A stretch of 59,510 nucleotides of DNA, filler included, from Rhizaria sp. SCN 62-66 (taxonomy: Eukaryota), in the NCBI GenBank assembly GCA_001724265.1. It is 2 parts of 2 records of this genome, joined end to end, with 100 filler letters (N's around TTAATTAATTAA, not from the genome) between each part and the next. Parts side by side here need not be neighbours in the genome. Positions count along the whole stretch, not along the records: positions 1 to 28,404 come from MEDY01000388.1; 1 more part is not named here. The stretch is one strand, 5' to 3'. A program made the position numbers and the translations under genes. Below are positions 18,293 through 59,238 of this stretch, piece by piece (the first letter of the stretch is position 1; each line of letters begins with the position of its first letter). The notes beneath the pieces are model-generated. The model ran no database searches. It was not told the DNA's origin and saw only the letters and a list, made by a program, of their open reading frames with translations.

Positions 18293-19606
18293 TCACCGGT
18301 CAGCGGGTTCCCAGCCCTCGCGCAGCAGCGCCGCGGCCACGGCCCCGCGCCGCTGCAGCCACCCGGGGCCCTCGAACCACAGCGTGACAGCGCGCGCCGT
18401 GTCGCTCCGGCCGCCACAGCCGCTGTTAGCGTTGATGTTGCTGCTGCGGGTGTGTTGCTGCCTAGCATTGGTGTCCGCAAAGGTTGAGGTACTGTCCTCG
18501 TGACTGCTCGCATAGTGAATGTGGCTGTGTGCGCGGAGCGAGTCCTCCCAGTCGTTGCCCGCGTTGAGATCGAAGTCAAGCCGCCCGTCGTCCTCCTGCT
18601 CTGCATTCGTGTCCGTAGCGTTCGCAGCACTCGCGTCGGAAATGAGGGCGTCGATTTTCTGGGCAGCGTGAACGTCCTGGCCTGTGCCGCTCTCGGGCGG
18701 CGGCTGCAGCCTCCAGTCGGCCCCGACAGCCGCCCGCAGCAGCTGCTGCAGCTCGGCCTGCGTCTGCGCCTCCGTAGGTTGTGCCTCTGCAGGCTGCGCC
18801 TCCGCAGGCTGCGACTCAGCGGGCTGTGGTGGTGGCAGCGCGGCAGCGGGCGCGAGCGTGGCCCGCCAGGCCAGCCCGCGGGGGTCGTCCTCGAGCAGCA
18901 CGCTCAGGCAGTGGCGGGGAAACAGCGGCAGCCCCGCCCCGCGGCCCACGCTGGAGCTAGAGCTAGAGCTGGAGCTGGAGCTGGAGAGCGGGAAAGGGAC
19001 GACGAGCGAGTGCGGGGGCCCGAAGGCAGCGTAGTGTTCCCGCTCGCTCAGCCGCTGCAACTGCTGCTGCTGCTGTGGGGTCTCGGCTCGGCGGCGCCGG
19101 TCCGCGCGCGAGAGGCGGTCCGGCCACTCGATGAGCGCGCAGTCGCTGGCAAACACGGCGGGCAGGTCCAGCACTGCGGCCTCGCGCAGCCCCGCCACGC
19201 GGTACAGATCAATGTGATGCAGGCGGCGGCCCGCGTGCACGTAGGTCGTGTCAAGTGTGAAGGTCGGCGAGGCCACGGGCAGCGCGGGCAGCCCCGTGAA
19301 GGCGCGCACGAAGGCCCGCGCGAACACCGTCTTGCCGACGCCCAGGTCGCCGTACAGCAGCACCGCGGCCCCCGGCGCCGCTGAGGCCGCGGCGACGGCG
19401 CGCGCAATCGCGGACGTGGCATCCGGCGACGGCGCGCGCAGGTACAGCGCGCCGTACGCGCCGGGGCTCGCCGCTGCGCTGCTGTCAGGCGGAGCGCCGC
19501 TGGAGCCCGAGCTGGCGCTGGCAGCGGAGAAGAGGCGTACGGAGCGGCTTGGCTACGGCGCTGCACGGTGCACGAGAGCCAGAGCGCGCCGGGAGCGGAA
19601 TAACAT
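18293..19606 (-). CDS. tsaE: TsaE (YjeE)-family P-loop ATPase with predicted mitochondrial presequence; in-frame TAG at codon 18
   Basis: TsaE motifs LYGDLGVGKT, VASPTFTL, HIDLYR and LIEWPDRL. The only in-frame ATG is at 19606 (MLFRSRRALALVHRAAP-TAG-PSRSVRLFS). TAG at 19553-19555, stop TGA. About 437 aa if TAG is decoded. Confidence 0.85.
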
Positions 19607-20358
19607 GTTGAGTCTCGATGCGCTCGTTGCAAAACTAAGTTCGACAGAGAGCTGATTGGCTGCCTCTGAGACACAGGAGCACCAAGGGCGCGGGTGGACT
19701 CGTTGTCGGGTGACTGCTGCTGAGTGGAATCATTTTTTAGCGTAATGGAACAGAAACAAGATTTTTAAAAAAAAAAATTATGGTTGGTAATATTAACATT
19801 GTTGTTTGATACAATAGTAGAGCTATAGACGTATTTACGATCAAACTCGCGAGACACACTCTTCCGGGTTTTTGCTCATTTCGACCGATTGAGCGAAGCG
19901 ACGAAAGCCGCTGCAAGTGTACGTTCCCGTTCCAGCACCTTTCGTGCTAATACAAATCAATAACATCTAGATTCGTTGATATTTTGCGTTGTGTGATACA
20001 TTAATGTTAAAAATATATTTGCATTGGAAACGATGAAGAAAAATTCCTTTATTATTGTTGTACGTCTCATACGAATAAACACAGCAATGTGTGGAACGTA
20101 ACAGTGCGTTGTCGCTACTGCTCGCGTTCAGATGAGTTTCGATCTCTTTCAGTTGCAGTGCGTGTGCAAGGCAGCACGCTACGTCAGAAATTAACTCGTA
20201 ATAAATAATTTTCGATAAAAACCGCAATAAATAACTCTAAGTAAAGTTCTCAATACAAAAAACGACATCAGTTCGGTCGTTACACAGAATCGTTCGTTGC
20301 TTGCTCACAGTCCGTCACACTCGCTCACAGTCGTGCACAGTCGCAGGCGGTCGCTCGC

Positions 20359-50714: not shown

Positions 50715-51965
50715 TTACGCCTTGATGTCGACACCGCGCTTCCAGAGCGTCTCGAAGTGCTTGACGTAGGGCGCGACAACGACGGGGATGTTGGTGCAGA
50801 TGACGTTCTCCTGGTTGCCGCTCGAGGCCGCGCGCGACCAGTTGAAGGAGCCCGAGATGACAAACTTGCCGTCGACGATGGCGTACTTGTGGTGCATGAG
50901 GAACTCGGACGAGTCGTGGCGCGTCGCGATGCCCGTCTTGGCCAGCGGGATGACGTCGGAGCCGGGCTCGTTCATGGTGGTCTTCTCAGTCATAAAGCGC
51001 ACCTTGACGCCCTTGAGGTGCAGCCCCTCGAGCGCGTTGAACGTGCGGTCGTCCGTCATGGTGAACACGGCAACCTCGAGCGTGCGCGTGGCAGACTTGA
51101 TGTAGTTGATGAACTTGTCGTACGAGAACTGCTCCGGGTTGTTGGGGTCGTTGGGGAAGAAGATCACGTCCGAGATGGGCTGGGCCGCGTTGTAGTCGAG
51201 GTTCAGGGGCTCGAACGCGGGCGCCTGCAGCTTCGCGCCGCCGGCAGCCAGCGCGTTGTTGTCGCGCACCATGGGCGCGGAGGAGTGGATCAGGCCCTCG
51301 ATTTTCTTCTGCAGCTTCTCCAGGTCGGCGTCGGCGCCGATGGCGGTGACGAGAGCGGCCTTGTCGGCGCCGCGGGGGACCTCAATCTCGCAGTTGAACT
51401 CCTTCTCCAGCTCCTTAAGCGTCGCGCCCTTGGGACCGATGATGGCGCCAAACGAGCCCTGGTCGATCTTGAAGCCGACGGTAACGAGGGGCGAGGTCGA
51501 GAGCTTGAGGCCCGTCTTGGCCTCGGCCTCGGCGCGCCACGCGGCGACGCCGGCGTCGGGGCCCTGGACCGTAATCAGCGGGTCGTTGTCGCCCTGGGGA
51601 GGGATACGCGCACGCACGCCGTGCTTCTCCTGCATGTTCTTGGCGACGGAGCCGCCAGCGCCGACGAGGGCGCCGTGCTGCTTGGGGGGCAGCCAGAACT
51701 GGTGCACGTCCTTGGGCAGCGACGCGGCCGGGGCGGGGGTGCTCATGGCCTTAGCAGGGGCAGCGGCAGCAGCAGCAGGCTTCTCGGCAGGCTTGGCAGC
51801 AGCAGCAGCGGGGGCAGCGGCGGCGGCGGCAGGCTTGGCGGCAGGGGCGGCGGCGGCAGCGGCGGGCTTAGCAGCAGCGGTCGACGCGGGCTTCTGCTGG
51901 GGGGAGTTGGCGGGCTTGGAGTTCTTAGGCTTGTTGTTGTCACCACCGCAAGGAGTATTGCCCAT
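50715..51965 (-). CDS. Fusion of two KH domains and a PLD6/Zucchini/Nuc-type single-HKD phospholipase D/nuclease domain (416 aa)
   Basis: KH1 HGALVGAGGSVAKNMQEKHGVRARIP and KH2 FGAIIGPKGATLKELEKEFNCEIEVP. PLD core MHHKYAIVDGKFVISGSFNWS...NQEN. N-terminus MGNTPCGG. Confidence 0.9.
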   Translation of the reverse strand: MGNTPCGGDNNKPKNSKPANSPQQKPASTAAAKPAAAAAAPAAKPAAAAAAPAAAAAKPAEKPAAAAAAPAKAMSTPAPAASLPKDVHQFWLPPKQHGALVGAGGSVAKNMQEKHGVRARIPPQGDNDPLITVQGPDAGVAAWRAEAEAKTGLKLSTSPLVTVGFKIDQGSFGAIIGPKGATLKELEKEFNCEIEVPRGADKAALVTAIGADADLEKLQKKIEGLIHSSAPMVRDNNALAAGGAKLQAPAFEPLNLDYNAAQPISDVIFFPNDPNNPEQFSYDKFINYIKSATRTLEVAVFTMTDDRTFNALEGLHLKGVKVRFMTEKTTMNEPGSDVIPLAKTGIATRHDSSEFLMHHKYAIVDGKFVISGSFNWSRAASSGNQENVICTNIPVVVAPYVKHFETLWKRGVDIKA

Positions 51966-52473
51966 GCTTGAAAGTGAGAATCACTGCGCAACAAAGAGAA
52001 AAAAGGAGTCAAGGGAGTGGTCGAATCTGTGAGTTGGCTGTTTAAATGGTTTCATCTCTACCATGCGTGACAAACGCAACAGAAATGCATCACATAAATA
52101 GTGAATATACAAACATCTTCATTTATTCCAAATATGTTTAAATCAGTCCACTTAACTGTCACTACGTCCCACACACAGAACATAATGAAGATGCGTGTTT
52201 CGTCAGCACTCCATTTCGCCTCGTGTCGCTAAACTGTCCACGCATTTATCGGTCCACGAACTTTTATTCGCAATGTACGTAAAGGCAATGTAACTTGATT
52301 GAACATGTTTAACTCAGCAAAAAAATCGTGTATTTATGTTCTCTGGCCCTGTGTCAAACTTGAATTAACCACAGGCCCCCTCATCACCAACGCGCATATC
52401 ACTCATATTGGTATTGGTATCCCCCTCCATTGTTGCAGTCTGCAGTCCGACAAACTGACGCCGTTGCTGATGT

Positions 52474-53983
52474 TCACCTGTTGCTGCCTGTGTCTCCGGA
52501 ATCCGCCGCGGCCGCCCTGGCCAGCGCCCCCAGCGGCGCCATCTCCACCTCCTGCCCCGCACCACCACCGCCGCCGCCTCCTCTCGCCGCGCTGGAGTGG
52601 TCCGCGTCCATCCCTGAGCCGGAGCTTGACCGCCCCAGCGCAACCTCGGTGCCCGCGAACGCGTCATGCTGCTGCTGCGCGGCCGACCCCGCCGCGACGT
52701 GCGTGCCCTGCTGCGCTGCGCCCGCCGAGTGCCGCTCCTGCCCCTCCGGCACCGCGCCCAGCGCGAGCCCGCCGCCGCCCGCAGTCTGACTGCCACCGCT
52801 GCCGCCGCGTCTGTTATTATCCTGCACTTGCACGGGAGCCTGCAGGTGCAGGAAGCCGCGGCCGTCGCCCGCACCGTCGTACCCGTCGCCCGCGGCGTCG
52901 CTGCCGCCGCCGAAGAGCCGCTGCCACAGCGACCTCTTTGGCTGAGCATTCGCGTTGCTGTTGTTGCTGTTGTTGCGGGGATTCGCGGGCAGGCCGCTGC
53001 GGTCCCTGGTCGTGGCGAGCGAGGCCCCGCGACCGCGCGCGTAGTACTGCACGCGGTCCGCGTCCTCGTCCTCCTCGGCGGCGGCCGCGGCGGCCTCGGC
53101 GGCGGCGGCGCGGCGGCGGCGGCGGCGCGCGGCGGCTTGATGCTCCCGGCGCAGCGCGGCGTGGCGCTAGCTCAGCAGCGCGTCCATGTCGCCCTCCAGG
53201 TCGCCCGCAGCGTCGATGTCGTAGTCGGGCGAGACGACGCCGAAGTGCTCGACCTGAGGCGGGTCAGAAAAGATGGGGCAGAGATGAAGATCGTAACAAG
53301 AGAAAGATGGCATAGTGAGTTACGATTGAGAGAGATATACAACGAAGATATTTGACATTAGAATAACAATATGATTGTTATTGCTAATAAATATACAATA
53401 TAACAATTATTTAAACATAATAAATAATACTCTTAAAAATTATCAAGAACTACAAAGGTTAAGACCAGTCTATCTGTTGTTTAGAAGAAATGAGACGCAC
53501 CTGAAAGCGGTCTGTCTTGGCCTTGACAAGAGACCGAATGGCAAAGAAACCGACAAGGAACTCGATGACGCAGAAGGCGGCGTAGATGGCGCCAAACGCG
53601 CGGTCGATGGGCAGCAGCGGGTACTGGATGGCCATCATCCACACGCAGTGGATCAGCCCCAGGAAGAAGGTGAGGAAGATGAAGGCGGCCAACTGGGGCA
53701 CGCGCTCCTTGAGGTTGCCCTGCCAGCCGAGATACAGCCGGTAGGGCTCAAGCAGCAGGTAGATAACGTAAAAGATGGGCGTGACAAAGGCAATGCGCCA
53801 CTCGGAGTAGTTGCGGTACTTGTAGATTAGCAGCAGCAGCTGGATCAAGGTGTAGATGATGCTGTAGAAGAAGTTGAAGTACAGCGCCTGGTGCAGCGGC
53901 AGGTTCGACAGCAAGGGAGTGTTGCGCAGCGGCTGTGGGTAGGGCTCATTCACTGGCCGCGTCACATACCGGGGCCACTCCAT
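52474..53983 (-). CDS. TMEM17: TMEM17/TMEM216-family ciliary transition-zone protein; exon 2 has an in-frame TAG followed by ~230 more open codons
   Basis: LSNLPLHQALYFNFFY...EPYRLYLGWQGNLKERVPQL is the Transmemb_17 signature. Exon 53983-53501, intron GTGCGT...CTGAC..CAG, exon from 53253. TAG at 53167-53169 (189 aa if stop); next stop TGA at 52474-52476 (420 aa). Confidence 0.8.
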
Positions 53984-57617: not shown

Positions 57618-57944
57618 GAACTTAAGCTTAGGTCAAACAAAACATCCAACCTCGTTAAGGGGAATGTCCCTTCGCAACAATACATACATAGTACTAATAT
57701 ATATATATATATACATAGCCACAAGTCATATTGATGATCGTCACTTGACAGCAGAACCAGTGTTATGTGACATGTTGTGAGCTAAAACGGCGCGCATCAG
57801 CGATAATGCTGACACTATTGTCAACTGACAAAAATAAAGTAGACGGCACCGCGTACAGACTGCAGTGGTCAAAAAAGAATGTTAAAGAGTGCATGAGGTG
57901 CGCAAGCAGAAGGTGGGTCGAGCTCGGCAGGGGCAAAAAGAAAG

Positions 57945-58016
57945 CTCTCTGACCGGGAATTGAACCCGGGTCTCCTCCGTGACAGGGAGGAATACTAGCC
58001 ACTATACTATCAGAGA
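57945..58016 (-). tRNA. tRNA-Asp(GUC)
   Basis: Acceptor stem TCTCTGA/TCAGAGA, anticodon arm CCTCC-CTGTCAC-GGAGG, T-loop GGTTCAATTCC, discriminator G, downstream T-run (Pol III terminator). Confidence 0.97.
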
Positions 58017-58692
58017 CTTTAAACAGCTTAACTGCTTGAATAAGTGATGTGCGGCAAAAAATCTTAAATATAAATTTTATTTATAACATAAAAATCAATT
58101 ATCGATGATATCTGTTCTATTTTCCGTTTTTCGAAAAGTTTAATGAGCCTGAACGATGGTTTTAAAGTATTTGTATTTTTTACAAATTTTATATGAAAAA
58201 CTATACACAAATTAGACTGAAAGAGAATCAAAAACATAAAAGAGATGGTCTGACAACAACTTGAAAGCCACAGTAATCCAGTAAACAAAAATTCAGTTTT
58301 ATCACACTAAACCGACACAAATACTGTCATGTTCTTGCAAAAAAGCACGGTGGCTGTAATAACAGAAGTCAATCAATAGTATTTTTTGTAGGTAGACATG
58401 AAGAAGCATATTACCACAAAATCACGTTGTGACAGCATCAAGAACACTTGAAATGCTGCAGTTCTGTCACAGTTCAGCTTGTTCTTCAGCTGTGGCACCG
58501 TGGCACCTGCTTGCACGATCTTGAAATGCAAAACAAGCACTCACACGCTTGCAATGAAGCAAAAAGAAGTCGATGTGAAGTATCAATGGGTGGTAAGACG
58601 ATGTCAACAAAGAAAGAAAAGATAACGTTCACAGCCCCAACGCAGGCAAAACAGACTGTGGGCGGCCATGCGGTAAAAGTGCAAAAAGAAAG

Positions 58693-58764
58693 CTCTCTGA
58701 CCGGGAATTGAACCCGGGTCTCCTCCGTGACAGGGAGGAATACTAGCCACTATACTATCAGAGA
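58693..58764 (-). tRNA. tRNA-Asp(GUC), identical second copy
   Basis: Same 72 nt as 57945-58016, with the same 3' trailer CTTTCTTTTTGC. Confidence 0.97.
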
Positions 58765-59165
58765 TTAGTGGATGATCGAGCCAAATTTAATATTTAAAAT
58801 CAATTTAGTTTTAAACCATAACTTCCCAAAACATTCTGATAAGTCAGGAAGCTTAACAAGTAGTTTCTTCAGCATGGTCAAGAAGAATTGTAAATACGTA
58901 AGTTATGAAATGTATTAATACTTTTGTAAACACTATTGCGCTTCACTGATAGTGTTTACTATTGTACAGTGAAGCGCGGGAGGCGGGGCGCATGATGTTA
59001 TAGAGATGACGAGGCTGACATTAAGCTAGCAGGGCGGTAGGAGTGTGATGGGGGTGGGGGAGTGGGTGCGGAGGCAAAAAGTAAAGGGCTTTGCGGAGCG
59101 TGGGCTGCGGAAGGTATATTTTCCGCTTTCGCGGTGGCTCACAGAGCAGCGGGAGATAAAAAAAA

Positions 59166-59238
59166 TTCCCACTACGGGACTTGAACCCGTGTCTCAGCAG
59201 TGAGAGTGCCGTATACTAACCACCTATACTAAATGGGA
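59166..59238 (-). tRNA. tRNA-Glu(CUC)
   Basis: Acceptor TCCCATT/AGTGGGA, anticodon arm CGGCA-CTCTCAC-TGCTG, T-loop GGTTCAAGTCC, followed by a T-run. Confidence 0.95.

Follow-up and report, generated by a model that had tools for sequence, protein, structure and literature searches.

The nuclear genome of Rhizaria sp. SCN 62-66 (GCA_001724265.1) probably follows a variant code in which UAG specifies glutamate, as a rarely used sense codon, and translation stops at UAA and UGA. That UAG is read as sense in this genome is close to certain; the assignment to glutamate draws on conserved alignment columns and on a cognate tRNA gene, and a release factor with unusual substitutions in its stop-reading motifs accompanies both.

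The TsaE gene and its in-frame TAG

The window, i.e., the whole stretch of 59,510 nucleotides that was analyzed, carries the following features.

18293..19606, minus strand: intronless gene for a TsaE (YjeE)-family ATPase, 437 aa with TAG read as sense, ending at a TGA
19553..19555, minus strand: in-frame TAG, codon 18, putatively Glu on genome-wide evidence, unchanged in 4 of 4 runs
19523..19606, minus strand: N-terminal 28 residues, Arg/Ser/Leu/Ala-rich, a putative mitochondrial presequence by composition
19097..19429, minus strand: match to the TsaE domain PF02367, residues 42-152 of the frame beginning after the TAG
19410..19645, no strand assigned: contig from a polyA RNA library (run X4), unchanged over start codon, TAG and candidate intron
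19553..19573, minus strand: formal 21-nt GT..AG pair, rejected as an intron (retained in the polyA contig, 39% chance rate, 71% GC)
53167..53169, minus strand: second in-frame TAG, coding-like on both sides (margins of 35.7 and 26.7 bits), in a protein without known family
57944..59238, minus strand: cluster of one tRNA-Glu(CUC) gene and a pair of identical tRNA-Asp(GUC) genes

Read on the minus strand from the ATG at 19606, the TsaE gene consists of MLFRSRRALALVHRAAP (17 codons), the TAG at 19555-19553, 419 further codons and the TGA at 18293, and the layout given in the preliminary description, with an ATG, a TAG and an intact ATPase frame, is thus accurate. The sole Met among the 437 codons lies before the TAG, and the only further ATG between 19645 and 19300, at 19422, is out of frame; the protein must therefore be made through the TAG, as had been argued earlier from the lack of any other Met. 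Likeness to bacterial TsaE (YjeE) lies in the match to PF02367 (87.3 bits, cut-off 26.6), whereas the gene described here is nuclear and eukaryotic, and its product is extended at the N-terminus and carries a long tail of low complexity.

The TAG is real and is not spliced out in the polyA RNA contig. No other codon was seen at this site, a possibility the preliminary description had raised: the TAG was identical in contigs from all four runs checked (17 were listed), which belong to three studies. The polyA-library contig (19410-19645) covers it without any difference or gap; this is one contig, its depth is 2.5, and DNA may be present in the library. Run X4 lacked cover on flanks that were covered by X3 and X5, which was not counted as evidence. 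Two codons past the TAG, at window position 19549, run X6 showed a one-base difference (Ser to Cys) in a single contig of depth 2, possibly an error.

Were the standard code in force, the TAG would have to be circumvented locally, by a 21-nt micro-intron, by programmed readthrough or by a CUG start at 19447 or 19441, or else the gene would be a pseudogene. Such an account can point to the formal GT..AG pair, to in-frame CTGs just ahead of the TsaE domain, to the great rarity of TAG within coding frames and to the coding model, built from 126 long ORFs, which does not favor the reading frame of codons 1-17 (-90.1 for frame 0, -81.3 for the best alternative frame and -100.7 for non-coding sequence), a caveat to be kept in mind for this part of the gene. 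The micro-intron was nonetheless rejected. The polyA contig runs across 19553-19573 without gaps, meaning that the 21 nt are retained, with the reservation that contigs drop rare variants. In the genome's long ORFs, moreover, 4424 of 11427 in-frame NAG codons (39%) are the end point of a GT..AG pair that spans 9-30 nt and preserves the frame, so that the pair found in TsaE is no more than chance would provide; the three introns of the eRF1 gene are 134-292 nt long with 37-52% GC, and the 21-nt candidate has 71% GC. The doubt already voiced about this intron was well placed. Local circumvention would in addition leave unexplained the TAGs in the single eRF1 gene, in SUV3, UBE2J1 and kinases, the cognate tRNA and the missing TAG gene ends, all described below; it is largely refuted, and we consider it very improbable.

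By composition, the N-terminus of the protein resembles a mitochondrial presequence, and targeting is putative. It had been described as acid-free, which does not hold with Glu at position 18, although the first 28 residues would still carry a net charge of +5. Mitochondrial carriers are numerous in the genome (90 matches). A homologue search returned seven TsaE proteins at 43-53% identity, none a close orthologue; in three of these TsaE is joined to a PF01636 domain, and an N-terminal extension is also present in one (P0410). A 2015 review treats TsaE as bacteria-only and without eukaryotic homologues (PMC4615747). A bacterial-type TsaE with a presequence-like N-terminus sits here (18293-19606, minus strand) in the nuclear genome of a eukaryote.

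Stop codon use across the genome

The TsaE TAG had been framed as a matter of a single gene; genome-wide counts indicate that it is one instance of a general code change. In a set of 459.5 kb, comprising the window and 400 kb of two contigs picked regardless of TAG, coding sequence flanks 13 TAG, 0 TAA and 0 TGA codons on both sides. Candidate gene ends in the same set number 16 TAA, 14 TGA and 2 TAG, a count that leaves out 83 stops either near a splice donor or weak-tailed. Judged by eye, one TAG candidate runs on into a ubiquitin-protease motif and the other looks non-coding, and no credible TAG gene end was found in the 459.5 kb, 0 of 30 being still compatible with about 10% of TAG ends (P 0.04). 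Within an 840-kb set, which includes loci chosen for having TAG, stops internal to coding sequence made up 23 of 37 TAG, 0 of 91 TAA and 1 of 61 TGA (Fisher p 6e-19). NCBI tables 30 and 31, in which both UAA and UAG mean Glu, were rejected on these counts, as in-frame UAA was found in neither set (0 in 459.5 kb; 0/91 in 840 kb).

In-frame TAG occurs in conserved genes, namely eRF1, SUV3, UBE2J1, five kinases and a USP5-like protease. Visual inspection of 31 excised family-search matches, all flagged as having a TAG inside, assigned 10 to coding sequence and 21 to intron ends or introns, one of these 21 having a further TAG of uncertain status; UCH matches that showed mixed stops are outside this tally. 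Intron acceptors are thus a genuine confounder for matches of this kind. No TAG was found in WD40 (149 matches), ABC (20) or AAA (22) proteins, and no coding TAG around three dynein genes (56 kb). In public gene calls, the SUV3 of this organism is split at its TAG into P0257 and P0276.

UAG is extremely rare, with 13 occurrences against 2979 GAG and 486 GAA in the 459.5 kb, or 0.37% of Glu codons. Other synonymous pairs differing at the first position are far more balanced (TTG/CTG 15%, AGG/CGG 19%), which places UAG about 40-fold below comparable codons. Extrapolated to the 35-Mb assembly, the observed rate would amount to roughly a thousand in-frame TAGs. Given this rarity, screens that require many sites would probably miss the code change.

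The residue at UAG and its cognate tRNA

Alignments clearly indicate an acidic residue at UAG, with Glu and Asp tied. Eight in-domain sites were scored: those in eRF1, the kinase hinge, SUV3 and UBE2J1, and four variable kinase sites. The unscored sites were those of a divergent ubiquitin-like copy (Gln column) and the USP5-like protease (gap-adjacent, Asn in human), one in a kinase insertion, an uncertain Ras-like site and a MetRS-like site. Pfam bits summed over the eight sites were 503.8 for Glu, 499.5 for Gln, 499.3 for Lys, 498.6 for Asp, 495.3 for Ser, 489.3 for Tyr, 485.9 for Leu and 484.3 for Trp, and the orthologue/paralogue columns scored, under two pseudocount settings, 7.9/7.0 for Glu, 8.3/6.9 for Asp and -11.1/-5.2 for Gln. 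The eRF1 TAG corresponds to human position 107, at which 117 homologues have Glu in 106 cases, Asp in 10 and Val in one, and Pfam places Gly (85.1) above Glu (83.9). The hinge TAG occupies the place of the hinge Glu, present in 20 of 27 paralogues, none of which has Gln; here Glu is the best of 20 residues in Pfam with 48.5 bits, followed by values of 46.4 for Asp and 46.1 for Gln. In SUV3 (148 homologues: Asp 87, Glu 9, Gln 6) and UBE2J1 (120 homologues: Asp 37, Glu 8, Gln 0) the columns lean to Asp, all residues at the SUV3 site lying within 0.5 bit in Pfam, and two close paralogues have Asp at the kinase site L091. Because the columns tie Glu with Asp, the Glu call rests on the tRNA.

One of 21 matches of a pattern search is a tRNA with anticodon CUA (G000:C84:76008-76080), found in one gene copy on a contig that also holds kinase and kinesin genes. 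The molecule would form a full cloverleaf with acceptor and T stem fully paired (Rfam, 58 bits), a 4-nt variable loop and ordinary D and T loops, and a T run follows the gene; the cloverleaf is that of ARAGORN and Rfam, and the minimum-free-energy fold differs from it (z -1.5). Aligned to the organism's own tRNAs, it scored 47 of 73 with Glu(CUC), 38 with Glu(UUC), 37 with Asp, 32 with Leu and 31 and 25 with Gln among those compared. Its first five acceptor pairs are those of both Glu tRNAs, and its T stem is identical to that of Glu(CUC), of which the copy clustered in the window is one of eight matching copies in the genome; a single Glu(UUC) gene was found. These features suggest that the CUA tRNA derives from tRNA-Glu and is charged with Glu. 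It is probably not a fresh suppressor mutation, since its divergence goes well past the one anticodon change. A tRNA with anticodon UUA was not found among 12 pattern matches, the nine distinct ones fetched being Thr, Pro or Lys tRNAs or no tRNA; the patterns cover typical intronless genes, and intron-containing or atypical ones would escape them.

Aspartate would be the meaning of UAG if AspRS charged the CUA tRNA. The latter has G73, as does the organism's own tRNA-Asp, and the tie in column likelihoods, the SUV3 and UBE2J1 columns and the paralogues at L091 agree with such an assignment. However, G73 is found in the organism's Glu(UUC) as well, the tRNA is nearer to Glu(CUC) than to Asp (47 vs. 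37), and CUA is one change from CUC but two from GUC, the anticodon that AspRS needs. The two most conserved columns are moreover Glu columns and the Pfam sum for Glu exceeds that for Asp by 5.2 bits, and Asp is in our judgment improbable.

Glutamine, alone or mixed with Glu through mischarging by GlnRS, is the commonest known meaning of UAG (PMC11687900), as in Iotanema and several ciliates. Several low-complexity TAG sites do fall in poly-Gln, the TAG of the divergent ubiquitin-like copy stands at a position where its paralogues have Gln, and the Pfam sum is just 4.3 bits under that of Glu. Transitions from CAG to TAG in relaxed sequence would nevertheless give both kinds of site under any meaning of the codon; Gln is absent from the eRF1 (0/117), UBE2J1 (0/120) and kinase-hinge (0/27) columns, and the CUA tRNA is unlike the organism's Gln tRNAs (31 and 25). 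Glutamine is disfavored, and its chances appear small.

A hydrophobic Val at eRF1 position 107 in the closest relative could speak for leucine, the meaning of UAG in the rhizarian exLh, and ARAGORN labels the tRNA 'Pyl', a label that presumably follows from the anticodon. Leucine lies 17.9 bits under Glu in the Pfam sum and the tRNA, with its 4-nt variable loop, has no long Leu arm, so that Leu is excluded. As to pyrrolysine, the D and T loops are ordinary and PylRS (PylS) gave 0 matches to TIGR02367 in the genome, which may be incomplete, with the positive control detected. Together these two meanings have next to no probability. The preliminary description had proposed Leu or Gln as the residue in TsaE; the evidence from conserved columns and from a cognate tRNA apparently derived from tRNA-Glu favors an acidic residue instead.

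Release factor, known codes and other features of the genome

The eRF1 gene was found once in the genome and is itself interrupted by a TAG, which is present in a separate metagenome contig too. The eRF1 alignment was used without its rows 1-33, which are out of frame. The stop-reading motifs carry the changes T32S, M34V, G57S, T58K, L124M, L126M and K130Q, and E55, K63, C127, L69 and S70 are kept. Across 117 homologues T32 and G57 are invariant and T58 is Thr in 116. Residue T32 contacts the stop codon's third base and closes the pocket at that point (PMC4605324; PMC5681627), and T32A is reported as lethal in yeast (PMC4381064). The substitutions T32S, G57S and T58K may thus blind this eRF1 to UAG. 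Its closest relative is the metagenome protein P0004, 84% identical and with Val at 107, and a metagenome scan returned only an identical copy and no other close relative. P0004 has T58K and M34V in common with the eRF1 described here, with T32 and G57 unchanged; its organism may be in the same code state or in an earlier one.

In the mechanism that we propose, the single-copy CUA tRNA would pair with UAG and not with UAA, and the single eRF1, its third-base pocket altered by T32S, G57S and T58K, would release poorly at UAG. On the TsaE message, ribosomes would start at the ATG at 19606, insert Glu18 by means of the CUA tRNA and go on to the TGA, giving a product of 437 aa with a putative N-terminal targeting peptide. 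The rarity of UAG might be due to selection against its use, given a single tRNA gene to serve it or some remaining recognition by eRF1. An ambiguous intermediate, in which eRF1 still releases at some UAGs against the product of one tRNA-Glu(CUA) gene, can also be envisaged: this competition would hold UAG at about one fortieth of the frequency of comparable synonymous codons, and the UAG in the N domain of eRF1 would provide negative feedback, excess eRF1 truncating its own message. The RF2 frameshift in bacteria is a parallel for feedback on a release factor. However, at the genome-wide rate a TAG would be expected by chance in 11% of genes having some 30 Glu codons, as eRF1 does, and position 107 is Val in the closest relative; we regard the ambiguous state as rather unlikely.

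The two codons UAA and UAG nearly always shift meaning jointly. Nuclear changes confined to UAG are described for the rhizarian exLh (Leu), Iotanema spirale (Gln), phyllopharyngean ciliates (Leu/Gln), Protocruzia (Gln) and Scotinosphaera (Ser) (PMC5304391; PMC11687900). With these systems the present genome shares UAG as sense, UAA and UGA as stops and decoding by a CUA tRNA, whereas the residue is here acidic, most likely Glu, and the tRNA appears to come from tRNA-Glu. T32 of eRF1 is altered in both I. spirale (T32G) and the present organism (T32S) (PMC5304391). Usage is far lower here, at 0.37% of Glu codons, than in I. spirale, where UAG makes up about 8% of Gln codons, or in phyllopharyngeans, where it occurs in 78-91% of genes.

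The meaning proposed here for UAG is found in Oligohymenophorea sp. PL0344, where UAG specifies Glu and UAA Lys (PMC10553269); in that ciliate, however, UAA is sense and 12 UUA and 10 CUA tRNA genes are reported, whereas in the present genome UAA is a common stop, one CUA tRNA gene was found and no UUA gene. In Blastocrithidia (table 31) and peritrich ciliates (table 30), in which UAR means Glu, UAG is decoded by a tRNA-Glu(CUA) derived from tRNA-Glu, as is proposed here (PMC12153298), but UAA and UAG are both Glu in those organisms, while here UAG alone has changed. In Blastocrithidia, selection acts against the use of reassigned codons in proteins that are abundant, which may be compared with the rarity of UAG in this genome (PMC12153298). 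AU pressure has been invoked for Blastocrithidia (PMC12153298), whereas the long ORFs of this organism strongly prefer G/C-ending codons, and the genome in which the code changed is GC-rich in its coding sequence.

Biopython's 27 NCBI tables do not include the combination of TAG as Glu with TAA as stop, and no nuclear code with UAG as Glu and UAA as stop was found in the literature searched, which consisted largely of non-subscription papers without their supplements. The combination of UAG as Glu with UAA and UGA as stops appears to be new, and its cognate tRNA gene and eRF1 variant are known alongside; in comparable cases such pieces are usually missing, as is a natural reporter, which eRF1 itself provides here. 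The substitutions T32S, G57S and T58K are candidates for blindness to UAG only, of interest for the engineering of amber suppression in eukaryotes.

Several other traits of the organism were recorded. Its genome has axonemal-type dyneins and myosins, the best-matching runs come from bioreactors, wastewater and activated sludge, and no named close homologue was found. The 18S rRNA gene (G000:C706:4459-8903) is very divergent and AT-rich, with four group I introns and an extra insertion of several hundred bases without Rfam match. Ubiquitin is unusually divergent at loci L236, L248 and L249, where the genes start with an additional Met-Ser and no polyubiquitin junction was recovered. The very divergent 18S and the extra Ser before ubiquitin may be no more than hints of Sainouroid Cercozoa, the group of exLh. 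The ubiquitin copy bearing a TAG has been captured in a long frame with an internal repeat (G000:C681:1512-4727), possibly a mobile element, whose C-terminal part presumably resembles phage tail-fibre chaperone domains. In the window, finally, a gene on the minus strand at 50715-51980 encodes a fusion of KH domains with a phospholipase-D-like nuclease domain.
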